Shown here piece after piece: positions 4,394-61,235 of a stretch of 64,000 nt of DNA; the first letter of the stretch is position 1, and each line of letters starts with the position of its first letter. The notes below the pieces were generated by a model that was given only the letters and a program-made list of their open reading frames with translations, had not been told where the DNA came from and ran no database searches. The DNA is taken from the NCBI RefSeq assembly GCF_058153355.1, contig NZ_CM177019.1; one strand, given 5' to 3'. Position numbers and translations under genes: made by a program.

Positions 4394-5413
4394 TTACTTC
4401 TTATGACGAATACGCGGGTTCACCACGCCGTACAGCAGATCGACCAGCAGGTTGACGAGGATAATCATCGTCGCCACCAGCAATACGCCACCCTGCACTA
4501 CCGGATAATCGCGGCGTTGCAGTGCGTCAATCAACCAGCGCCCCAGACCGGGCCACGAGAAGATGGTTTCGGTCAGAATCGCGCCTGCCAGCAATGTTCC
4601 CACCTGCAGGCCGATAACGGTCACCACCGGCAGCATGGCATTACGCAGCGCATGGACGATAATCACCCTAAGGCGGGTCAGCCCTTTGGCACGCGCGGTG
4701 CGGATGTAATCCTCGCCCAGCACTTCCAGCATCGAGGAGCGCGTCATACGTACAATGACCGCCAGCGGGATAGTACCCAGCACAATGGCGGGCAAAATCA
4801 TATGGGCGACAGCATCAATAAAGTTGCCGTCTTCACCCCAGATGGCGGTGTCGATCAGCATAAAACCGGTTAACGGATTGGAGTCATCGAGGAACACCAT
4901 GTCGCTCACGCGACCGGAGACGGGCGTCAGGTTCCAGTGCACTGAAACCAGCATGATCAACATCATGCCCCACCAGAAGATCGGCATGGAGTAGCCGGTC
5001 AGCGCCAGACCAACCGCCGTGTGATCGAAAATAGAACCGCGTTTAACCGCAGCCAGCACACCAACCGGAACACCGACCGCGGTCGCAAAAATCATCGCGC
5101 AGACGCCAAGTTCCAGCGTGGCCTGGAAGCGCGGCACGAACTCTTCCCATACCGGAATTCGGCTTTTCATCGAAATGCCTAAATCACCGTGCATTACGCC
5201 CCAAATGTAATGGAGATACTGCTGCCACATCGGTTTATCCAAGCCGAGTTCTGCCAGCAATTGCGCGTGACGCTCTGGGGAGATCCCACGTTCACCCGCC
5301 ATGATCATCACCGGATCGCCCGGGATCATGTGGACAAAGGCAAATGTGAGAAGGGTAATACCGATAAACGTGGGGATGACGAGTCCCAAACGTCGGAGAA
5401 TAAACTGCAACAT
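4394..5413 (-). CDS. dppB: dipeptide ABC transporter permease DppB
   Basis: ORF 4394-5476; recalled DppB start MLQFILRRLG at internal ATG (5411-5413 on minus strand) gives 339 aa. Confidence 0.9.
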   Translation of the reverse strand: MLQFILRRLGLVIPTFIGITLLTFAFVHMIPGDPVMIMAGERGISPERHAQLLAELGLDKPMWQQYLHYIWGVMHGDLGISMKSRIPVWEEFVPRFQATLELGVCAMIFATAVGVPVGVLAAVKRGSIFDHTAVGLALTGYSMPIFWWGMMLIMLVSVHWNLTPVSGRVSDMVFLDDSNPLTGFMLIDTAIWGEDGNFIDAVAHMILPAIVLGTIPLAVIVRMTRSSMLEVLGEDYIRTARAKGLTRLRVIIVHALRNAMLPVVTVIGLQVGTLLAGAILTETIFSWPGLGRWLIDALQRRDYPVVQGGVLLVATMIILVNLLVDLLYGVVNPRIRHKK

Positions 5414-7897: not shown

Positions 7898-9202
<1,305 letters not shown>

Positions 9203-9402
9203 CATGCCTGCAATCTGGGAAACCGGGGTAGAAAAAAACTTGCAGGCCATAACAGTATCTACGTTCAGATTTGGTCGGTGCCAGAGGATTACTCGCCACT
9301 GCGTGGCTCGCCCTGCGGGCCGTTGCTGACGCAACGTTCTCTCGCTTTGCTCGAGTCGAACCTCTCTGCCCCCGGAGGTTCTTATCCTCTTCAGGTCGCA
9401 GA

Positions 9403-42780: not shown

Positions 42781-44029
<1,249 letters not shown>

Positions 44030-44059
44030 CATGCCTGCAATCTGGGAAACCGGGGTAGA

Positions 44060-44090
<31 letters not shown>

Positions 44091-50183: not shown

Positions 50184-51680
50184 ATGACGCAATACTGGCT
50201 GGGGTTAGATTGTGGCGGAAGCTGGCTAAAAGCCGGACTGTATGACCGCGAAGGCCGGGAGGCAGGCGTGCAGCGCCTGCCGCTGTGCGCATTAAGCCCG
50301 CAGCCAGGCTGGGCAGAGCGCGATATGGAAGAACTGTGGCAATGCTGCATGGCTGTCATTCGCGCCCTGCTTACCCATTCCAGCGTTAGCGGGGAGCAAA
50401 TTGTCGGCATCGGTATCTCCGCACAGGGAAAGGGCTTGTTTTTGCTGGATAAAAACGACAAGCCGCTCGGTAACGCCATTTTGTCCTCGGATCGCCGGGC
50501 GATGGAAATCGTTCGTCGCTGGCAGGAAGATAGCATCCCGGAAAAACTCTACCCGCTGACCCGACAAACCTTGTGGACCGGGCATCCGGTGTCGCTGTTA
50601 CGCTGGCTGAAAGTGCACGAACCAGAACGCTACGCGCAAATTGGCTGCGTGATGATGACGCACGACTACCTGCGTTGGTGTTTAACCGGCGTCAAAGGCT
50701 GTGAAGAGAGCAATATTTCCGAATCCAATCTCTACAACATGAGTCGCGGGGAATATGACCCGTGCCTCACCGACTGGCTGGGGATCAGTGAAATCAATCA
50801 CGCCCTGCCGCCTGTTGTTGGATCTGCCGAAATCTGCGGGGAAATCACCGCTCAGACAGCCGCACTGACCGGTCTGCAAGCGGGTACGCCCGTTGTCGGC
50901 GGCCTGTTTGATGTGGTTTCTACCGCACTCTGCGCCGGAATCGAAGACGAATTTACCCTCAATGCGGTGATGGGGACCTGGGCGGTGACCAGCGGCATAA
51001 CCTGCGGTTTACGTGACGGTGAAGCGCATCCGTATGTCTATGGTCGCTACGTTAACGATGGTGAATTTATCGTTCACGAAGCCAGCCCTACCTCTTCCGG
51101 CAATCTCGAATGGTTTACCGCGCAGTGGGGAGAAATCTCGTTTGCAGAGATCAACCAGGCTGTTGCCAGCTTACCGAAAGCCGGTGGCGATCTCTTTTTC
51201 CTGCCGTTCCTGTACGGCAGCAACGCCGGACTCGAGATGACCAGCGGTTTCTACGGGATGCAGGCCATTCACACCCGCGCACACCTGTTGCAGGCCATTT
51301 ATGAAGGCGTGGTGTTCAGCCATATGACCCACCTCAACCGGATGCGCGAACGTTTTACTGATGTGCACACCCTGCGCGTCACTGGCGGCCCGGCGCACTC
51401 CGATGTCTGGATGCAAATGCTGGCGGACGTTAGCGGACTGCGTATCGAACTGCCGCAGGTGCAAGAAACGGGCTGTTTTGGCGCGGCGCTTGCCGCCCGC
51501 GTCGGCACCGGAGTTTATCGCGATTTCAGCGAAGCCCAGCGCGATCAACAGCACCCGGTGCGTACCCTGTTACCGGATATGACCGCCCATCAGCTTTACC
51601 AACAAAAATACCAACGCTATCAGCACCTCATTGCCGCACTACAGGGCTTTCATGCCCGCGTTAAGGAGAACACATTATGA
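50184..51680 (+). CDS. lyxK: L-xylulose/3-keto-L-gulonate kinase
   Basis: 498 aa FGGY-family carbohydrate kinase. Confidence 0.9.
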   Translation: MTQYWLGLDCGGSWLKAGLYDREGREAGVQRLPLCALSPQPGWAERDMEELWQCCMAVIRALLTHSSVSGEQIVGIGISAQGKGLFLLDKNDKPLGNAILSSDRRAMEIVRRWQEDSIPEKLYPLTRQTLWTGHPVSLLRWLKVHEPERYAQIGCVMMTHDYLRWCLTGVKGCEESNISESNLYNMSRGEYDPCLTDWLGISEINHALPPVVGSAEICGEITAQTAALTGLQAGTPVVGGLFDVVSTALCAGIEDEFTLNAVMGTWAVTSGITCGLRDGEAHPYVYGRYVNDGEFIVHEASPTSSGNLEWFTAQWGEISFAEINQAVASLPKAGGDLFFLPFLYGSNAGLEMTSGFYGMQAIHTRAHLLQAIYEGVVFSHMTHLNRMRERFTDVHTLRVTGGPAHSDVWMQMLADVSGLRIELPQVQETGCFGAALAARVGTGVYRDFSEAQRDQQHPVRTLLPDMTAHQLYQQKYQRYQHLIAALQGFHARVKENTL

Positions 51681-52339
51681 GCAGACCACTTCTGCAACTG
51701 GCCCTCGACCACTCATCACTTGAAGCCGCACAGCGCGACGTTACGCTGTTAAAAGACAGCGTCGATATCGTCGAAGCAGGCACTATTCTCTGTTTAAACG
51801 AAGGGCTTGGCGCGGTGAAAGCCTTGCGCGAACAGTGCCCGGACAAAATCATCGTTGCTGACTGGAAGGTCGCCGATGCTGGTGAAACGCTCGCGCAACA
51901 GGCGTTTGGCGCAGGCGCTAACTGGATGACCATCATCTGCGCCGCACCGCTCGCGACGGTGGAAAAAGGCCACGCGATGGCGCAACGCTGCGGTGGTGAA
52001 ATCCAGATAGAGCTTTTTGGTAACTGGACGCTGGACGACGCCCGCGACTGGCATCGTATTGGCGTGCGGCAGGCGATTTATCATCGTGGTCGTGACGCGC
52101 AGGCCAGCGGGCAACAGTGGGGCGAAGCCGATCTGGCACGCATGAAGGCGCTTTCCGATATCGGCCTTGAGCTTTCCATTACCGGCGGGATTACGCCTGC
52201 TGACCTGCCGCTGTTTAAAGATATCCGCGTGAAAGCGTTTATTGCCGGGCGGGCGCTGGCAGGCGCAGCAAATCCGGCACAGGTAGCTGCCGACTTCCAT
52301 GCGCAAATCGACGCTATCTGGGGAGGCGCGCGTGCGTAA
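51677..52339 (+). CDS. sgbH: 3-keto-L-gulonate-6-phosphate decarboxylase
   Basis: 220 aa OMP-decarboxylase-like family member. Confidence 0.9.
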
Positions 52340-53192
52340 TCATCCGTTAGGGATTTATGAAAAAGCGCTGGCGAAAGATCTCTCCTGGCCGGAGCGGCTG
52401 GTGCTGGCAAAAAGCTGCGGTTTTGATTTTGTCGAAATGTCGGTGGATGAAACCGACGAGCGTCTGTCGCGCCTTGACTGGAGCGCCGCACAAAGGACTT
52501 CGCTGGTTGCCGCGATGATCGAAACGGGTGTTGGGATCCCGTCGATGTGCCTGTCCGCACATCGTCGTTTTCCCTTTGGTAGCCGTGACGACGCGGCACG
52601 CCAGCGAGCACGGGAGATCATGAGTAAAGCAATTCGTCTGGCGCGCGATCTCGGTATTCGCACCATTCAACTGGCGGGCTACGACGTCTATTACGAAGCC
52701 CATGACGAAGGCACGCAGCAACGTTTTGCCGAAGGGCTGGCGTGGGCGGTTGAACAGGCAGCCGCCGCGCAGGTGATGCTGGCGGTGGAGATTATGGATA
52801 CTGCGTTTATGAACTCCATCAGCAAATGGAAAAAATGGGACGAGATACTCGCTTCGCCGTGGTTCACCGTCTACCCGGACGTCGGCAACCTTAGCGCCTG
52901 GGGCAATGATGTTCCCGCTGAACTGAAACTGGGCATTGACCGTATCGCCGCCATCCACCTGAAAGATACCCAGCCAGTGACCGAGCATAGCCCCGGACAG
53001 TTCCGCGACGTGCCGTTTGGCGAAGGCTGCGTCGATTTCGTTGGTATCTTCAAAACGCTGCATGAACTGAACTATCGCGGATCATTTCTGATTGAGATGT
53101 GGACCGAAAAAGCCAAAGAGCCGGTGCTGGAGATTATTCAGGCGCGGCGCTGGATTGAAGCGCGTATGCAGGAGGCCGGATTTATATGTTAG
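52332..53192 (+). CDS. sgbU: L-ribulose-5-phosphate 3-epimerase
   Basis: ORF 52299-53192; start [12 protein letters not shown] at GTG 52332 gives 286 aa; xylose-isomerase-like TIM barrel. Confidence 0.88.
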
Positions 53193-53680
53193 AGCGATTG
53201 AAAGCCGACGTGCTGGCGGCGAATCTGGCGCTTTATCGTCGCTATGCAGAAATTGGCGGTATTGTGCATACCCACTCGCGCCACGCCACCATCTGGTCAC
53301 AGGCCGGGCTGGATCTCCCCGCCTGGGGCACCACGCACGCCGATTATTTCTATGGTGCCATCCCCTGCACGCGACAGATGACCGCAGAGGAGATTAACGG
53401 CGAATATGAATATCAGACCGGCGAAGTGATCATTGAAACTTTCGAAGAACGCGGCAGGAGTCCGGCACAAATCCCGGCGGTATTGGTGCATTCTCACGGT
53501 CCGTTCGCCTGGGGCAATAACGCCGCCGATGCGGTGCATAATGCCGTGGTACTCGAAGAGTGCGCCTATATGGGCCTGTTCTCGCGCCAGCTTGCGCCGC
53601 AGCTTCCTGCGATGCAAAACGAACTTCTGGATAAGCATTACCTGCGTAAGCATGGGGCCAATGCCTATTACGGGCAGTAA
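53186..53680 (+). CDS. sgbE: L-ribulose-5-phosphate 4-epimerase SgbE with 67-codon in-frame internal deletion
   Basis: 164 aa instead of about 231; N-terminus [16 protein letters not shown] joins directly to [17 protein letters not shown], omitting the conserved N-terminal class II aldolase segment. Confidence 0.75.
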
Positions 53681-53688
53681 TCTATCAC

Positions 53689-53710
53689 GCCGGGGCTTCA
53701 TTGCCCCGGC
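53689..53710. terminator. bidirectional hairpin between sgbE and convergent AraC-family gene
   Basis: gccggggcttcattgccccggc. Confidence 0.45.
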
Positions 53711-53711
53711 A

Positions 53712-54527
53712 CTACGAATTGATATGTTCCTTGCTGTAACGTCGCTTCCACGCAGCTGGCGTTAAACCGGTGTGTTTGCGAAAAATCTGTCGGAAATAGC
53801 CAACGTCATTAAACCCGCACAACGCCGCCACTTCCGTGAGCGATCGCGCTTCGCTAATTAACAGCTTTTCGGCTTCGCGCACTCGCTGGCGGTGGATTGC
53901 TTCTGTTAACGTCAGATGAAACACCCGCCGATAGACACGCCCAAGATAATCGGCATTGCAGTACAGCTCGCGGGCTAAAAGCGCCGTAGAAAGCGGGCGA
54001 TGATATTGCGTGCGGATCAGTTTCTGCGCTTTCCAGGCAAGCGTGGTACCTGCGGCATCGGCCTGTTCATCAAGACGCGCGTCACGGGTGAGTTGCTGCA
54101 AAATCAGCAGCACAATAAACTCCAGCGCCGGAGTGCGTTGATGCTTTTCCTGTTCGCTTAAGAACTGGCGAAACAGGGCCACCAGCGCCTGCGGATCGGC
54201 AACCTTCGTTTGTTGCGGCACGCTAAGATGAGTGAGCCAGCGCGGGTCGCTATCCGGCGCTTTAACCTCAAAATGCAGCCAGTAAAATTTGAGATCGGCG
54301 GGAAAATCCTCTACCCCAACATGCTGTCGGTTCGGCCAGAGTAATAAACTCTCTCCCGCATCGACCAGAAATATCCGCTCTTCTTCCTGAATCGTTAATC
54401 GACCTTTTTCGACAAAGATAATTTCCCATGACTCCAGCCGCCTTGCCGGATGCCTCCCTACGCCACGGGAAATAAATAATCCACCATTTTGCACTTTAAT
54501 CGGTAACGTCATGGATAATTCGAGCAT
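53712..54527 (-). CDS. AraC-family transcriptional regulator (cupin sensor domain plus HTH)
   Basis: 271 aa; C-terminal AraC HTH signature (GFNDVGYFRQIFRKHTGLTPAAWKRR); divergent from transporter gene. Confidence 0.85.
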   Translation of the reverse strand: MLELSMTLPIKVQNGGLFISRGVGRHPARRLESWEIIFVEKGRLTIQEEERIFLVDAGESLLLWPNRQHVGVEDFPADLKFYWLHFEVKAPDSDPRWLTHLSVPQQTKVADPQALVALFRQFLSEQEKHQRTPALEFIVLLILQQLTRDARLDEQADAAGTTLAWKAQKLIRTQYHRPLSTALLARELYCNADYLGRVYRRVFHLTLTEAIHRQRVREAEKLLISEARSLTEVAALCGFNDVGYFRQIFRKHTGLTPAAWKRRYSKEHINS

Positions 54528-54752
54528 TGATATGTAATTTCCCGCTTATTCATTAATGATTAAACACATTACCTTTTGATTATTAATCAAAAACATTAAT
54601 TTCACCTGATCCAATTCACACTTTTAAATTCAGGTCGGAATCGTCACCTTTTTTTACTCTTTTCTCGCCTTGTTGATATTCCCGTTCACGGCAGAATTAA
54701 TCATGTCATTTCAATAAAACTAAAAATTGCTCCCTATGCACGAGGAATATCT

Positions 54753-56153
54753 ATGACCTCTACACCGATTACTACCGCTGATATCGCTAAAGGTAAAATT
54801 GACGATGCGTTATCTGTACGGGAAAAAATAGGCTACGGCCTGGGTGACGCAGGCGGCACCGTAATAACTTGCCTGATCATGAACTTTCTCACCTTTTTCT
54901 ACACCGACGTTTTTGGCTTAACTCCGGCGCTGGTCGGCACGCTGTTTATTGCACTGCGCGTGTTTGATGCCATCTCCGACCCGGTGATGGGCGTCATTGC
55001 CGACCGGACGCAAAGCCGCTGGGGGCGTTTTCGTCCGTGGCAGCTATGGATTGCCGTCCCTATTGGCATTATCGGCATCCTGACGTTCACCGTACCGGAC
55101 GCCAGTATGGGGGTGAAGATCGCCTGGGCGTTCGGCACCTATCTGCTGCTTTCCGTCGGTTATACCGCCATCAACGTGCCGTACTGCGCGCTGATCAACA
55201 CCATGACGACCCGCCACAATGAGGTAATTTCGTGCCAGTCCTGGCGATTCGTTCTCTGCGGCGTAGCGGGATTTCTGGTTTCGGTTGGCCTGCCGTGGAT
55301 GGTAGATCTCTTCGGTCAGGGTAATGCCGCGCGCGGCTATCAACTGGGCGTCGGCGTGCTGTGCGCCATCGCTGTGGTGATGTTCCTGTGCTGTTTCTTC
55401 TGGGTTCGTGAACGGGTGCCACTCTCCACAATGGGGAAATTTACCCTGCGCGAACATCTTGCCGGGCTGCGAAACAACGACCAACTGCTGCTGATGCTGG
55501 TCATGTCTTTCCTGCTGATTAACGTCTTTAATATTCGCGGCGGTGGGTATATGTACTTCATTACCTACGTCTTACAAGGCAGTACGGGCTACACGTCGCT
55601 GTTCTTCACTATGGTCACCTTCGCCTCCATTATCGGCTCGGTGATTGTCAGCCCGTTAACGCGACGTTTCGATACCGTCAAAATTTACTACTACACCAAC
55701 CTGCTCCTCGCCGCGCTGGCGGTGTTGATGTGGTTCCTGCCTTCTGGCCCGGCTTATCAAACGCTGTGGCTGGCGGTGATCCTTGGTAATGGCGTGATTC
55801 TTGGCTTCACATTGCCATTGCACTTCTCATTGATGGCCTTTGCCGATGACTACGGCGAGTGGAAAACCCGCGTACGTTCTTCCGGCATGAACTTCGCCTT
55901 CAATCTGTTTTTCATCAAGCTGGCCTGGGCCTCCAGCGCCGGGATCATCAGCCTGCTGTTTATTTTTGTCGCCTACCAGCCTGGCGTGGAAAACCAGACC
56001 GCCAGTTCGCTTGGCGGGATCGCGGCGATGGAAACATTGCTGCCTGCGCTGTTCCACCTGCTGCTGGCGATGGCGATCCGCTTTTGCAAACTCAATAACC
56101 CTATGATGTCACGCATTGCTAGCGACCTGCGTCAGCGTCATGTACAGCCTTAA
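54753..56153 (+). CDS. GPH-family glycoside-pentoside-hexuronide:cation symporter
   Basis: 466 aa, 12 TM; MelB/YicJ-like N-terminal motif ([24 protein letters not shown]). Confidence 0.85.
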
Positions 56154-56163
56154 GGAGCACAAG

Positions 56164-58134
56164 ATGAACATTTCGGAAGTCGATCTGCATAAACTGACGG
56201 TCAGCGATCCGTTCCTCGGTCAGTACCAACAACTGGTCCGCGACGTGGTGATTCCTTATCAGTGGGATGCCTTGAACGATCGTATCCCAGAAGCGGAACC
56301 CAGCCATGCGATTGAAAACTTTCGCATTGCCGCAGGACTGCAAGACGGTGAATTTTACGGGATGGTGTTTCAGGACAGCGACGTCGCCAAATGGCTGGAA
56401 GCGGTAGCCTGGTCGCTGTGCCAGAAGCCGGATGCCGAACTGGAAAAAACTGCTGACGAGGTAATCGAACTGGTCGCTTCCGCCCAGTGCGAAGATGGCT
56501 ATCTCAATACTTACTTTACGGTAAAAGCGCCCGAAGAACGCTGGAGCAATCTGGCGGAGTGTCATGAACTTTACTGCGCCGGTCATCTGATTGAAGCCGG
56601 AGTCGCCTTCTTCCAGGCCACGGGCAAGCGGCGCTTGCTGGAAGTGGTTTGCCGTCTGGCCGATCATATCGACAGCGTATTTGGTCCAGGTGAAAGTAAG
56701 TTACACGGTTATCCTGGTCATCCGGAAATTGAACTGGCACTGATGCGCCTGTATGAAGTGACCGAAGAGCCGCGCTACCTGGCGCTGACGAACTATTTTG
56801 TCGAACAGCGTGGTGCGCAACCGCACTATTACGACTAGGAATATGAAAAGCGCGGGCAGACCTCGCACTGGCACACCTACGGCCCGGCGTGGATGGTGAA
56901 AGACAAAGCCTACAGCCAGGCACATTTGCCCATCGCACAGCAGCAAACCGCCATTGGTCACGCGGTACGTTTTGTCTACCTGATGACCGGCGTCGCGCAT
57001 CTCGCGCGTTTAAGTCACGATGAAAGCAAGCGTCAGGACTGCCTGCGGCTGTGGAACAATATGGCCCAGCGTCAGTTATATATTACCGGCGGCATTGGCT
57101 CACAAAGCAGCGGCGAAGCGTTCAGCAGCGATTACGATCTGCCGAATGACACGGTATACGCCGAAAGCTGTGCTTCCATCGGCCTGATGATGTTCGCCCG
57201 GCGAATGCTGGAAATGGAAGGCGACAGTCACTATGCCGATGTGATGGAGCGCGCACTGTACAACACCGTGCTCGGCGGCATGGCGCTGGATGGCAAACAT
57301 TTCTTCTATGTGAATCCGCTGGAAGTACATCCAAAATCGCTGAAATTCAACCATATCTACGATCACGTTAAGCCGATCCGCCAGCGTTGGTTTGGTTGCG
57401 CTTGTTGTCCGCCAAATATCGCCCGCGTGCTAACCTCGATTGGTCATTATCTCTACACGCCGCGTGAAGATGCGTTGTATATCAACATCTACGCAGGAAA
57501 CAGCATGGAAGTGCCGGTAGAAAATGGCACGCTGCGTCTGCGGGTTAGCGGAAACTATCCGTGGCAGGAACAGGTGACAATTGCGGTTGAATCGCCCCAG
57601 CCGGTGCGTCATACGCTGGCTTTACGTCTGCCGGACTGGTGCACACAGCCGCAGATTACATTGAATGGGGAAGAGGTCGAGCAGGATATTCGTAAAGGGT
57701 ATTTGCACATTACCCGCGAATGGCAGGAGGGCGACACGCTGAATCTGACTTTGCCAATGCCGGTACGTCGCGTTTACGGTAACCCGCTGGTGCGTCACGT
57801 CGCCGGAAAAGTGGCGATTCAGCGCGGCCCGCTGGTGTATTGCCTGGAACAGGCCGACAACGGCGAGTCACTGCATAACCTGTGGCTGCCCGCCGATGCG
57901 CCATTTACGACATTTGAAGGTAATGGATTGTTCCGCCATAAGATCTTAATCCAGGCACCGGGTTACCGGTATGAACAGAGCAATCCAGAGCAGCAACCGC
58001 TGTGGCATTACGACAGCGCGCCAGCCAAACGCCAGCCGCAAACTCTGACATTTATCCCGTGGTTTAGCTGGGCTAACCGGGGTGAAGGCGAAATGCGGAT
58101 CTGGGTGAATGAGGAAAACCAGTGCCATCCGTAG
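56164..58134 (+). pseudogene. GH127-like (DUF1680, beta-L-arabinofuranosidase family) glycoside hydrolase interrupted by in-frame TAG
   Basis: ORFs 56116-56838 and 56893-58134 are in the same frame, separated by TAG at 56836-56838; combined about 655 aa; RBS aaggag before ATG 56164. Confidence 0.7.
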
Positions 58135-58215
58135 GTAGGATAAGGCGCTCGCGCCGCATCCAACCTAGGGTGCACATTGCCTGATGCGACGCTTAACGCG
58201 TCTTATCAAGCCTGA
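58135..58215. repeat. REP elements between GH127 gene and yiaT
   Basis: ggataaggcgctcgcgccgcatcc and gcctgatgcgacgcttaacgcgtcttatcaagcct units. Confidence 0.6.
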
Positions 58216-58263
58216 AGGTCAGTGCGAGAGCGTAGGCCAGCCGCACCGACATCCACCGGTAAA

Positions 58264-59004
58264 TTAAAAACGCCAGCTCACGCCGGTGACAAAGGTAAAA
58301 CTCTCATTACGATCAATCATCGGGCTGTCGGTAATCTCTTCCGGCAGCTCGCTGTATCCGGCACTCGCCATCAATACGATGTGCTCTCCTATCGGGTATT
58401 TTGCCGTCAGGCTGACATAGGGCACCCAGGCATCCTGCGCGGAATAACTTGCCAGACCGCTACGACGGGACTCACTCTCTGAAATGCCATAGTAATAGTC
58501 ACTGAAATTCTCGTCATAATAGAGAACGCCCAGTGCAGGTGTCAGCGACAGGCGACCTATCTGCATTTTGTGAAATACCGATAGCTCCCCCACCCAGCCG
58601 TTGCTGTTATCCAGAACGTCCGCAGCCGCAGAGGCTTTCACGGTTCCCCAACGCTCGTGGTGATACCAGGCAACCCCCGCCATAGCCGTACTATCACGCT
58701 TATCAAGCTGTTGCATGGCATGATCGTCATTATCTGCAGGGTCAAATTCCAGCGGCATCCAGGATGCGGTCAGGCTAAGTTCATTTTTTTCACTTTGCGA
58801 CAGAATAAAACCTAACGTGGTCTGACGAACATAAAAAGAATCACCTTCATAACTAATCAGCGGAATTGCCTTTGTATTTTCATTATAACCACGATAAGGC
58901 GATTCATTATAAGCTGCACCAGCACCAATGGATAATTCAGAAGCAGTAGCGCTTGCCATAAAAGGCAACGTAAATAACGCCACAATATTGCGGTTAATTA
59001 ACAT
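58264..59004 (-). CDS. yiaT: MipA/OmpV-family outer membrane protein YiaT
   Basis: 246 aa; signal peptide; beta-barrel C-terminal F. Confidence 0.85.
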   Translation of the reverse strand: MLINRNIVALFTLPFMASATASELSIGAGAAYNESPYRGYNENTKAIPLISYEGDSFYVRQTTLGFILSQSEKNELSLTASWMPLEFDPADNDDHAMQQLDKRDSTAMAGVAWYHHERWGTVKASAAADVLDNSNGWVGELSVFHKMQIGRLSLTPALGVLYYDENFSDYYYGISESESRRSGLASYSAQDAWVPYVSLTAKYPIGEHIVLMASAGYSELPEEITDSPMIDRNESFTFVTGVSWRF

Positions 59005-59127
59005 GTCCGGTATTCCATTTTAAAATAAGATAAAAAAGAGTCGGCATAATAATGCTTACAATTTCTCCGGTGCAAGATTCATATTTATATAGTAATATAT
59101 AAAATTATATATAATTGGGCTGTTGCG

Positions 59128-60102
59128 ATGACAAAATTACAACTTAAGTACCGGGAGTTAAAAATTATCTCGGTAATCGCTGCCAGTGAAAATATCAGCC
59201 ATGCCGCGACTGTACTTGGATTCGCACAGGCCAACGTCAGCAAATATCTTGCTGATTTTGAATCAAAAGTAGGTTTAAAAGTCTTTGACCGAACCACCCG
59301 GCAGTTGATGCTCACACCTTTTGGTACCGCGCTGTTACCGTACATCAACGACATGCTGGACAGAAACGAGCAACTTAATAATTTTATTGCAGATTATAAG
59401 CATGAGAAACGTGGTCGGGTCACCATCTACGCCCCAACCGGCATAATTACCTATTTATCCAAACATGTTATCGATAAAATTAAAGATATCGGTGATATCA
59501 CCTTATCGCTAAAAACCTGCAATCTTGAGCGTAATGCCTTTTATGAAGGTGTCGAATTTCCCGATGATTGTGATGTTTTAATCAGCTATGCTCCACCAAA
59601 AGATGAATCGCTGGTTGCCAGTTTTATTACGCAATATGCCGTAACCGCTTATGCCAGTCAGCGCTATCTTGAGAAACATCCCATTAGCCGTCCTGACGAA
59701 CTCGAACATCACTCCTGTATTTTGATCGACTCGATGATGATCGACGACGCGAATATCTGGCGCTTCAACGTCGCCGGGAGTAAAGAGGTGCGGGATTATC
59801 GCGTGAAGGGAAATTACGTTTGCGACAACACGCAATCGGCGCTGGAGCTGGCACGAAATCACCTGGGGATTGTGTTTGCGCCAGACAAAAGTGTGCAGAG
59901 CGACCTGCAAGACGGCACGCTGGTGCCCTGCTTTCAGCAACCGTATGAATGGTGGCTGGATCTGGTGGCTATCTTCCGTAAACGGGAATACCAGCCCTGG
60001 CGGGTCCAGTATGTGCTGGATGAAATGCTGCGTGAAATTCGCCACCAGCTTGCTCAGTCGCAGCAACTGCGGCCTGAACAAGCGGCGGAAAGCGAAGATT
60101 AA
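59128..60102 (+). CDS. yiaU: LysR-family transcriptional regulator YiaU
   Basis: 324 aa; N-terminal LysR HTH. Confidence 0.85.
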
Positions 60103-61235
60103 TGATCGAGATAAAGGTAATGCACCCAACTGGTCATGCGTAACAGCACTTTGCGCATCACCGAGACATGGCTGAAATGATCAGAGTAAACCGCCACCTG
60201 GGCGTAAATACCGTCTGGTAAAGCGCTCAACTCAGTGTGCTCATCCAGTTCAATGGTCGCGATAACGCCATCTGAACCCGGTGCTGTGTTTAACGTCTGT
60301 AAGGTGCCGGTCGACTGATAAGCTCCGCCGGGAACAGCTGGGCTAATGGCTGCCAGCTTACCGCTGAATACCTTACCTGGCAGAGCATTAAACACCACTT
60401 CCGCATCATCGCCGGGAGCCAGTCGCAGCAAGGAGTTCTGACGGAACTGCGCCACAATTTGTCGTTTCTGATCGGGTATAAACACCATCACAGGACGTAG
60501 CGGCAGCGATGCGGCATAGGTACCCGGACGAATCAGCACTTGCGTCACATAACCATCGCTCGGCGCACGCACTATCGTCTGCTCAAGGTTATATTTTGCT
60601 TCCGCGAGCTGCGCTTTCAGGCTGGCGATTTGAGAATGTTCACCCAACACCAGGCTATCCAGCTGGCTCTGGATCTGTTTTTGTTCCGCCGCCGATGACT
60701 TTACGGAGGCTTCCTGCGCCAGATAATTTTGCCGCGCCACATCAATATCGCGTTCTGAAAACGGGTTTACTTTCGCCTGGCTGCCGCGTGCGTAACGCTG
60801 GTACTCTTTAGCGAATTTATCCCGCGTGGCCTTTGCCTGCTGAGTATTCGCCGCCATCTCATCTAACTCTGCGCCCAACGCCCGCTGTTTATGTTCTGCG
60901 GTAACGATATCCGCCATCAGCCGATCCACCCGCGCCTGATAACGCGTCGGGTCCAGTCGAAATAGCACCTCACCTTTTTTAATCAGCGTATTTTTCTTGT
61001 CCGTCACTTCGATCACCACGCCTGTCACCTGCGGGACAACAGGAATAGAAATAACTGCTTTTTGCGCTTTAAAGGTATACGGATGGTTATAGTTCATTAA
61101 CAGAATTAGACCGCTGACAATAAATATGCCACCCAGGGCCGCGGTGGGAATGGTCCATTTATTTACAGGAATTTTGAAGATCTTAAACATTGCCCATGCG
61201 AAAGCCACATAGGTCAAAATAATCAGTAAATCCAT
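60099..61235 (-). CDS. yiaV: HlyD-family membrane fusion (periplasmic adaptor) protein YiaV
   Basis: 378 aa; N-terminal TM, coiled coil, barrel-sandwich domain. Confidence 0.85.

Follow-up and report, generated by a model that had tools for sequence, protein, structure and literature searches.

Is the DNA between sgbE and yiaT on contig NZ_CM177019.1 an accessory islet that was inserted into this Escherichia coli chromosome, and does it encode a working glycoside pathway? Three genes lie there in the 64-kb window (the whole stretch of DNA analysed, to which all coordinates refer), encoding an AraC-type regulator, a GPH symporter and a GH127 hydrolase. A preliminary description had taken them for an inserted accessory islet; this reading did not survive, as Citrobacter, Enterobacter, Lelliottia and Huaxiibacter have the genes at the same place and K-12-type genomes hold remnants of them. 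We consider it very probable that the genes form an old chromosomal module of the Enterobacteriaceae and not an insertion, comprising the AraC-type regulator, the GPH symporter and a cytoplasmic GH127 enzyme, and that the hydrolysis step is dead in this strain. The gene families, conserved active-site residues, operon layout, synteny between genera, purifying selection in E. coli and K-12 deletion scar are seen in the sequences themselves; the substrate, inducer and promoter logic of the module are inferred. In map order its components are:

53712-54527, minus strand: AraC/XylS-family regulator gene, 271 aa, intact
54528-54752, both adjoining genes facing away: divergent control region, 225 bp, AT-rich, G+C 0.40
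54753-56153, plus strand: GPH/MFS_2 cation symporter gene, 466 aa, intact
56164-58134, plus strand: GH127 (DUF1680) hydrolase gene of the beta-L-arabinofuranosidase type, 656-codon frame, a pseudogene here

Open reading frames (ORFs) were found at 53712-58134 as the preliminary description had placed them, and Pfam and NCBIfam searches returned exactly the AraC, GPH and GH127 families that it had named, including for the hydrolase, which a domain search could have put in another family. The symporter and hydrolase genes are separated by 10 nt, and an AAGGAG motif overlaps the symporter stop codon 6 nt before the hydrolase ATG; this spacing indicates that the two genes form an operon, and translation of the hydrolase is probably coupled to that of the symporter. 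With the regulator gene divergent from this transporter-hydrolase operon, the layout is that of a self-contained regulated module for uptake and hydrolysis, as had been proposed, but working hydrolysis in the window has to be given up, since the hydrolase gene stops short of its active-site codons. RefSeq annotation already covers the module in thousands of genomes, its families are well known and its arrangement is standard. The practical value of the present analysis is mostly corrective, in that the evolutionary reading and the state of the hydrolase are set right.

The hydrolase and its likely substrate

The Pfam domains of the hydrolase were read on a conceptual translation in which codon 225 was masked. 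Pfam returned PF07944 (2e-111, residues 12-427), PF20736 (4e-24, 438-532) and PF20737 (3.5e-25, 534-649), which together make up the three-domain architecture of GH127, a catalytic (alpha/alpha)6 domain followed by middle and C-terminal beta domains. The closest solved relative was PDB 4QJY, a Geobacillus GH127 beta-L-arabinofuranosidase (E 9.8e-236, 788 bits, residues 11-650), followed by Bifidobacterium HypBA1 (E 5e-153), while the match to the BT1003-like structure 5MQO was much weaker (E 4e-95). On alignment, hydrolase residues E318, E334, C336, C414 and C415 correspond to E322, E338, C340, C417 and C418 of HypBA1, whose H142, H194 and H270 are also identical in the window hydrolase. The active site of HypBA1 is built from the nucleophile Cys417, the acid/base Glu322 and a (Cys)3-Glu zinc site (PMC8106489), and the window hydrolase has the full corresponding set, with predicted nucleophile C414, acid/base E318 and zinc site C336/C414/C415/E334. 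Inspection by eye showed no hydrophobic stretch of the signal-peptide kind at its N-terminus (MNISEVDLHKLTVSDPF...); HypBA1 likewise acts inside the cell, where it cleaves imported beta-Ara2 (PMC7263609). A cytoplasmic beta-L-arabinofuranosidase supplied by the adjacent symporter is, on these comparisons, the best-supported predicted function of the intact module. The earlier suggestion that a beta-L-arabinofuranoside is the most likely substrate class is borne out to this extent, the nearest solved relatives being GH127 beta-L-arabinofuranosidases and the catalytic residues being conserved.

The window hydrolase resembles HypBA1 (BLLJ_0211), from the Bifidobacterium longum beta-arabinooligosaccharide cluster, in being a predicted intracellular GH127 retaining cysteine glycosidase with the same Cys nucleophile, Glu acid/base and (Cys)3-Glu zinc site, and by analogy with that cluster a small beta-L-arabinofuranoside would be imported and then cleaved in the cytoplasm (PMC7263609). 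HypBA1 is less similar in sequence to the window hydrolase than the Geobacillus enzyme is, and the Bifidobacterium system employs an ABC (ATP-binding cassette) importer, secreted GH121 and GH43 enzymes and another regulator, whereas the enterobacterial module has a GPH symporter and an AraC-type regulator. Because it includes no secreted enzyme, the enterobacterial module would depend on substrates freed by others. The Geobacillus stearothermophilus GH127 enzyme (PDB 4QJY/4QK0) shares the three-domain architecture and differs in its source, a Gram-positive thermophile, where the gene stands in an L-arabinan utilisation cluster with ABC transporters.

The same architecture might instead serve another glycoside imported by the symporter, such as another furanoside, an anhydro-sugar or a sugar of the aceric-acid type. 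GH127 enzymes vary in function, the transporter and regulator fit no characterised specificity, and the sole NCBIfam match of the hydrolase was to the aceric acid hydrolase model. This match, however, scored 455 bits, less than half the cutoff of 950, and covered residues 252-649 only; 5MQO (4e-95) lies far behind the two beta-L-arabinofuranosidases (1e-235 and 5e-153), and every HypBA1 subsite -1 residue checked is identical. We consider another substrate class unlikely.

Ancestry of the module and its loss from K-12

Relatives of the module were sought in one genome per species, with neighbour genes then located by tblastn. Close relatives of the hydrolase (71-97% protein identity) were found at 80 loci, and about 70 of these (about 70 species) carried the complete triad, with the regulator gene on the minus strand, the GPH and GH127 genes on the plus strand and the same spacing. 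The genera with the triad include Escherichia, Citrobacter, Klebsiella, Raoultella, Enterobacter, Lelliottia, Kluyvera, Kosakonia, Phytobacter and others, and it also occurs in Salmonella diarizonae, Pantoea, Mixta and Buttiauxella. The full order sgbU-sgbE-regulator-GPH-GH127-yiaT-yiaU is present in Citrobacter youngae, Enterobacter asburiae, Enterobacter mori, Lelliottia and Huaxiibacter; in Klebsiella, Raoultella, Salmonella diarizonae, Kosakonia and Phytobacter only the link to sgbE persists. Protein identity drops with phylogenetic distance, from 97% in Escherichia through 87-88% in Citrobacter and 83% in Salmonella to 80% in Enterobacter. The G+C content of the module genes (0.52-0.59) equals that of the flanks, the control region being the exception, and no mobility gene, tRNA or attachment-site-like repeat was found at 53689-58263. 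The marks of a horizontally acquired islet were thus missing: the orthologous site is filled in related genera, K-12-type genomes keep remnants of two of the genes, and neither mobility genes nor composition gives a signal.

Two findings outside this pattern turned up in the same scan. Bradyrhizobium spp. (L073-L077, L079) carry a GH127 gene whose product is 72% identical to the E. coli protein, with no GPH or AraC-type neighbours; so high an identity is unusual across the divide between alpha- and gamma-proteobacteria and suggests that the hydrolase gene was once transferred by itself. A record labelled Chryseobacterium sp. 18061 (L025) has neighbour coordinates and identities equal to those of Citrobacter sp. 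18056 (L024), from the same project, and is probably mislabelled or contaminated, not a Bacteroidota homologue. We rejected the idea that the window itself derives from an Escherichia other than E. coli: over 53220-61198 it shares 99.3% identity with an E. coli genome, against only about 90% with E. whittamii.

K-12 had been given in the preliminary description as lacking the module, with sgbE directly followed by yiaT. It does lack an intact copy of any of the three genes, but sgbE is not directly followed by yiaT. Between the two, K-12 keeps the hairpin described below, 102 bp from the 3' end of the regulator gene, which the Prokaryotic Genome Annotation Pipeline (PGAP) lists as a partial AraC-family pseudogene, and a 190-bp piece of the hydrolase gene that corresponds to window positions 57837-58026 at 89.5% identity. 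The missing segment, window 53816-57836 (4,021 bp), begins within the regulator gene, ends within the hydrolase gene and has no clear microhomology at its ends. A second K-12 deletion of 210 bp, at about 58027-58236 and between CCAGCCGCA repeats, removes the 3' end of the hydrolase gene together with the downstream repetitive extragenic palindromic (REP) elements.

We surveyed 5,426 complete E. coli genomes for these states. The module interior is present in 2,324 (43%), always single-copy and chromosomal, including O157:H7, O145, a sequence type 69 (ST69) strain and an avian pathogenic E. coli strain, and the 41-mer spanning the K-12 junction is present in 2,453. One junction shared by so many genomes points to a single old deletion, and comparison of the sequences identifies K-12 as the derived deletion state and the module as ancestral. 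What appears "accessory" when measured against K-12 is thus the ancestral locus, K-12 being a deletion mutant with a recognisable scar. The roughly 650 remaining genomes include other states: the regulator gene through yiaW gone, with sgbE beside aldB; the regulator gene alone left (enterotoxigenic E. coli strains); and, in H92, an IS1 family transposase gene in the matched stretch, adjoining a regulator gene annotated as helix-turn-helix domain-containing. Where the module is kept it is under purifying selection, because codons with synonymous changes only far outnumber those with amino-acid-changing ones among eight alleles (34/8 in the regulator, 74/11 in the transporter and 107/32 in the hydrolase gene). 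A "frameshifted" GH127 gene in strain AVS0068 was considered as a case of decay and rejected; it has a 1-nt indel in the last few codons that is common to alleles annotated as intact.

Two elements had been proposed as the borders of the segment, a hairpin on the left and REPs on the right:

53689-53710: G+C-rich hairpin with 8-bp stems at 53689-53696 and 53703-53710, between the convergent sgbE and regulator genes
58134-58212: REP pair, similar to a bacterial interspersed mosaic element (BIME), downstream of the hydrolase gene, Rfam naRNA4/REP

Both elements are real, but they do not delimit the variable segment, whose edges lie inside genes. The hairpin has a folding free energy of -20.6 kcal/mol (z -4.83) and no U-tract after it on either strand; a terminator scan of 53600-58400 did not call it because no T-run follows. 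It is kept in K-12 and is therefore not an islet border. The REP pair scored 63.1 bits against Rfam naRNA4 (gathering score 59.5), and the REP core occurs five times in the window against 0.11 expected. Rfam matches of CRISPR-DR16 to the hairpin (E 0.17) and of c4-a1b1 (E 0.56) were treated as chance.

Horizontal acquisition of the three genes by some E. coli lineages, at a site between sgbE and yiaT and bordered by the hairpin and the REPs, would account for a module found in only 43% of complete E. coli genomes and for the state of K-12, and it could draw on the REP elements at one end and on a neighbourhood prone to rearrangement, where the right flank is yiaT, hicAB or aldB depending on the strain. 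The module occupies, however, an identical position and orientation in four related genera and is linked to sgbE in four further taxa; K-12-type genomes hold remnants of both outer genes at one common junction; the variable segment ends within genes and not at the hairpin or REPs; and its G+C equals that of the flanks, with no integrase, transposase, tRNA or direct repeat. The module alleles of E. coli genomes, at 96-99% identity, also diverge to a degree that would fall within the range of the E. coli core genome, which counts against acquisition by some lineages only. We regard such an acquisition as highly improbable and retain the reading of an ancestral module.

Two further features of the neighbourhood were noted in E. 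coli. To the right of the module lies a hot spot of rearrangement, occupied by yiaT, by the hicAB toxin-antitoxin pair or by aldB according to strain. O157:H7 lacks yiaK-sgbE, and a yiaJ remnant adjoins its regulator gene.

An amber codon at a Dcm site interrupts the hydrolase gene

Codon 225 of the hydrolase gene, CAG (Gln) elsewhere, is an in-frame TAG in the window (56836-56838), which splits the frame into ORFs of 224 and 413 aa. Because all catalytic residues are encoded beyond this stop, the 224-aa product is left with no active site; in the 413-aa ORF the catalytic (alpha/alpha)6 domain (Pfam residues 12-427) is missing its N-terminal portion. The window therefore holds no uninterrupted GH127 coding sequence, whereas an unbroken gene is present in the nearest relative and in at least 2,170 genomes. 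That relative, the nearest complete genome (strain 2020CK-00188, 99.3% identical over 53220-61198), has CAG at codon 225 and encodes an intact 656-aa protein. Intact orthologues include WP_032185424.1 and the O157 protein WP_001026882.1. A 41-mer centred on the TAG was found in 0 of the 5,426 complete E. coli genomes, against 2,170 for the CAG version. By its sequence the hydrolase gene is a pseudogene in this strain. As the hydrolase is truncated before its active site, the module in the window cannot hydrolyse anything, and no phenotype is to be expected from it, although the regulator and symporter genes remain intact beside it.

The TAG is not a sequencing error, because a Logan contig (L096) assembled from the reads of SRR31441161 is identical to the window over 3,348 nt with the TAG included. 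The exact 224-aa and 413-aa products, the shortened SgbE described below and this transporter allele are all present in public data. Among eight alleles, Q225* and Q356H are the only GH127 changes private to the window, which indicates that the inactivation is recent. The notion that the TAG is a sequencing or assembly error, or is read through so that the hydrolase functions in the strain, deserves almost no credence: it rests on a single-base difference absent from the 5,426 complete genomes, on a gene that apart from Q356H has no other window-private change and no further decay, and on the fact that an amber suppressor of the supE type, by inserting Gln, would give back the wild-type residue, but an independent read set shows the TAG together with the sgbE deletion, other samples carry this TAG on different haplotypes, NCBI lists the SgbE (EGO8354242.1) and major facilitator superfamily (EGO8354244.1) proteins of this lineage, with the hydrolase fragments only in Logan read assemblies, and supE is not known in natural isolates.

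The mutated base lies in a methylation context:

56835-56839, plus strand: CTAGG, in other E. coli the Dcm site CCAGG, with T56836 as the mutated inner, methylated C

Deamination of 5-methylcytosine in the same context gave the classical lacI amber hotspots (PMC12606429). The same TAG was found in five public assemblies (L090-L094) in which sgbE is intact and the right flank is hicAB where the contig extends so far. Two of these (L091 and L092) have 0 other differences from the ST69 CAG allele (NZ_CP102488) over 3,348 nt and 90 from the window, and L090 represents a third haplotype, which differs from the ST69 allele at 45 positions and from the window at 107. The occurrence of the TAG on the haplotypes of L091/L092, of L090 and of the window shows independent origins: the C-to-T amber mutation arose at least twice, and probably a third time. 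Contigs L095 and L097-L101 were considered as amber alleles and not counted; they merely end at the polymorphic site. The GH127 gene contains nine Dcm sites, five of them amber-capable, at codon 225 and at codons 83, 151, 252 and 597. The likeness to the lacI hotspots of Coulondre and Miller extends to the kind of change, C to T at the second C in CCAGG with CAG becoming TAG, and to its recurrence; the difference is that those were recovered in a laboratory mutation screen and these in natural populations. The recurrent change from CCAGG to CTAGG is thus a natural, and unsurprising, example of the textbook 5-methylcytosine hotspot.

The symporter, the regulator and the control region

The symporter scored 332.6 bits against the NCBIfam model TIGR00792 (gph; cutoff 231.35) over the whole profile (1-437 of 437), and matched Pfam MFS_2 at 5e-73 (profile 1-426 of 427), which places it in the GPH family (TC 2.A.2). 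It reached the level of no characterised subfamily, with 356 bits for YagG (cutoff 610), 325 for the YicJ-like model PRK11462 (836), 209 for MelB (456) and 193 for GusB (528). Aligned with MelB over residues 20-460 (E 4e-38), it keeps the helix II carboxylates D55 and D59 as D72 and D76, while N58 is replaced by S75 and D124 by N141. D55 and D59 of MelB are carboxylates of the cation site, and coupling of the window symporter to a cation is predicted. The pairing of a GPH transporter gene with the gene of a cytoplasmic glycoside hydrolase recalls yicJ-yicI, yagG-yagH, uidB-uidA and melB-melA of E. coli, and the best NCBIfam subfamily matches of the symporter are two of these transporters, YagG and PRK11462. 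The partner here, however, is a GH127 enzyme and not one of GH31, GH43, GH2 or GH4, gene order and regulator type differ, and the scores under the YagG and PRK11462 cutoffs indicate that the window symporter belongs to a separate GPH branch.

The symporter gene also contains a foreign-looking patch:

55026-55232, plus strand: 207 bp with 20 window-private changes, 19 of them synonymous

The patch is 89% identical to other E. coli alleles and 95-96% identical to E. whittamii and Escherichia sp. E1V33, and it looks like a short recombination tract from a donor resembling the cryptic Escherichia clades.

The regulator matched the Pfam families HTH_18 (4e-19, residues 184-263), AraC_binding (2.5e-9, 26-132) and HTH_AraC (5e-8). 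Its N-terminal cupin-type ligand domain and C-terminal double helix-turn-helix are those of the AraC/XylS family, and it differs from WP_000891823.1 by 1 aa. The best NCBIfam match was to AraC (NF007860) at 61.5 bits against a cutoff of 208, below the level of orthology to AraC itself. Alignment of the divergent intergenic region from 15 genera revealed conserved blocks in 54528-54752 that stand out sharply from freely drifting sequence:

54576-54590: palindrome TTGATTATTAATCAA
within 54605-54625: CRP-like GATCnnnnTCACAyTTT, right half good
54634-54641: GTCGGAAT
54648-54658: CTTTTTwTACT
54668-54675: CCTTGTTG, holding a -35-like TTGTTG at 54670-54675
54691-54697: GCAGAAT, holding a -10-like CAGAAT at 54692-54697, spacer 16 nt

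From their conservation we read these blocks, by eye, as candidate CRP, activator and promoter elements. Hypothetically, if TTGTTG and CAGAAT were the -35 and -10 elements, the CRP-like site would lie near -92 and the two middle blocks at about -71 to -47. The arrangement would then resemble araC-ParaBAD in its divergent regulator gene, in the cupin domain and double helix-turn-helix of the regulator and in the putative order of CRP site, activator sites and weak -35; it differs in the low score of the regulator against AraC and in that the sites and inducer are predicted only. A permissive-threshold Rfam search of 53000-59200 found no riboswitch or small RNA in the leader, and only the REP-derived naRNA4 passed.

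Proposed working and significance

We propose that in strains with an intact module the symporter would import a small beta-L-arabinofuranoside, most likely Araf-beta1,2-Araf or a related oligomer, that other gut or plant-associated microbes may free from plant hydroxyproline-rich glycoproteins or pectin. The GH127 enzyme would cleave the imported glycoside in the cytoplasm to L-arabinose, which would enter the araBAD pathway, and the regulator together with CRP would turn on the operon from a promoter with a weak -35, in a layout like that of araBAD. In the window, a C-to-T change at the methylated inner C of the Dcm site has created the amber codon 225 and abolished the hydrolysis step.

Several observations weigh against this assignment. 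A generic sigma-70 promoter scan of 53600-58400 did not call a promoter in the control region, the regulator is only distantly related to AraC (61.5 bits), and the symporter falls below the cutoff of every named GPH subfamily. The GH127 family also includes an aceric-acid hydrolase and a 3,6-anhydro-D-galactosidase, and with such other specificities the family alone leaves the substrate unfixed. Our literature search found no biochemical work on an enterobacterial GH127 enzyme, and no biochemical, transport or expression data for enterobacterial module members; the sole E. coli literature found was a pangenome association of a GH127 gene with epithelial invasion (PMC11879602). More than half of E. 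coli genomes, moreover, have lost the module or carry it in damaged form, which implies that it is dispensable in many niches.

It is a tentative suggestion, and one we regard as somewhat doubtful in its full breadth, that nearly half of E. coli strains and species in many genera of the Enterobacteriaceae and neighbouring families carry an unstudied ancestral route for scavenging beta-L-arabinofuranosides via a GPH symporter, which the Dcm hotspot repeatedly switches off. If this were true, beta-arabinobiose from plant hydroxyproline-rich glycoproteins would be among the scavenged substrates, the symporter would be the first GPH member assigned to beta-L-arabinofuranosides, and the K-12 deletion would explain why the route escaped classical genetics. 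Whether a strain has the module could then matter for cross-feeding with bifidobacteria in the gut and for the reported association with invasive isolates from inflammatory bowel disease, and, if the function were confirmed, the module would represent a trait for cross-feeding on plant glycans that differs from one E. coli lineage to another.

Flanking genes and other features of the window

The genes on either side of the module are:

53186-53680, plus strand: sgbE (L-ribulose-5-phosphate 4-epimerase), left flank, 164 aa against the normal 231
58264-59004, minus strand: yiaT (MipA/OmpV family), right flank

The shortening of sgbE, missing from the preliminary description, is a 201-bp in-frame deletion between two copies of ATCTGGCGCTT, of which the remaining copy lies at 53223-53233. 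It takes out residues 17-83, such that the NCBIfam match spans profile positions 78-231 only; these residues presumably include the phosphate-binding and metal-ligand positions of AraD-type epimerases. The 41-mer across the deletion junction was found in 0 of the 5,426 complete genomes, and the exact 164-aa protein is EGO8354242.1, which is also encoded on the Logan contig L096. The sgbE gene is gone altogether in E. whittamii (L004, about 4508-4552), where sgbU lies almost directly before the regulator gene and nothing corresponds to window 53182-53676; by sequence comparison this is another independent loss beside the module. Identity to K-12 is 94.1% over lyxK-sgbE (50600-53233) and 98.0% over yiaT-yiaV (58237-61199), a disparity that points to mosaic ancestry around the locus.

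Elsewhere in the window, positions 7969-9262 and 42796-44089 are 1,294-bp repeats that are 100% identical, each with a gene for a 326-aa IS110-family protein that matched the "RNA-guided transposase" model NF033542 (253 bits, cutoff 140). In size the element fits IS621. A REP-like sequence at 7947-7961 immediately precedes the first copy, as would be expected if insertion were targeted to REPs.

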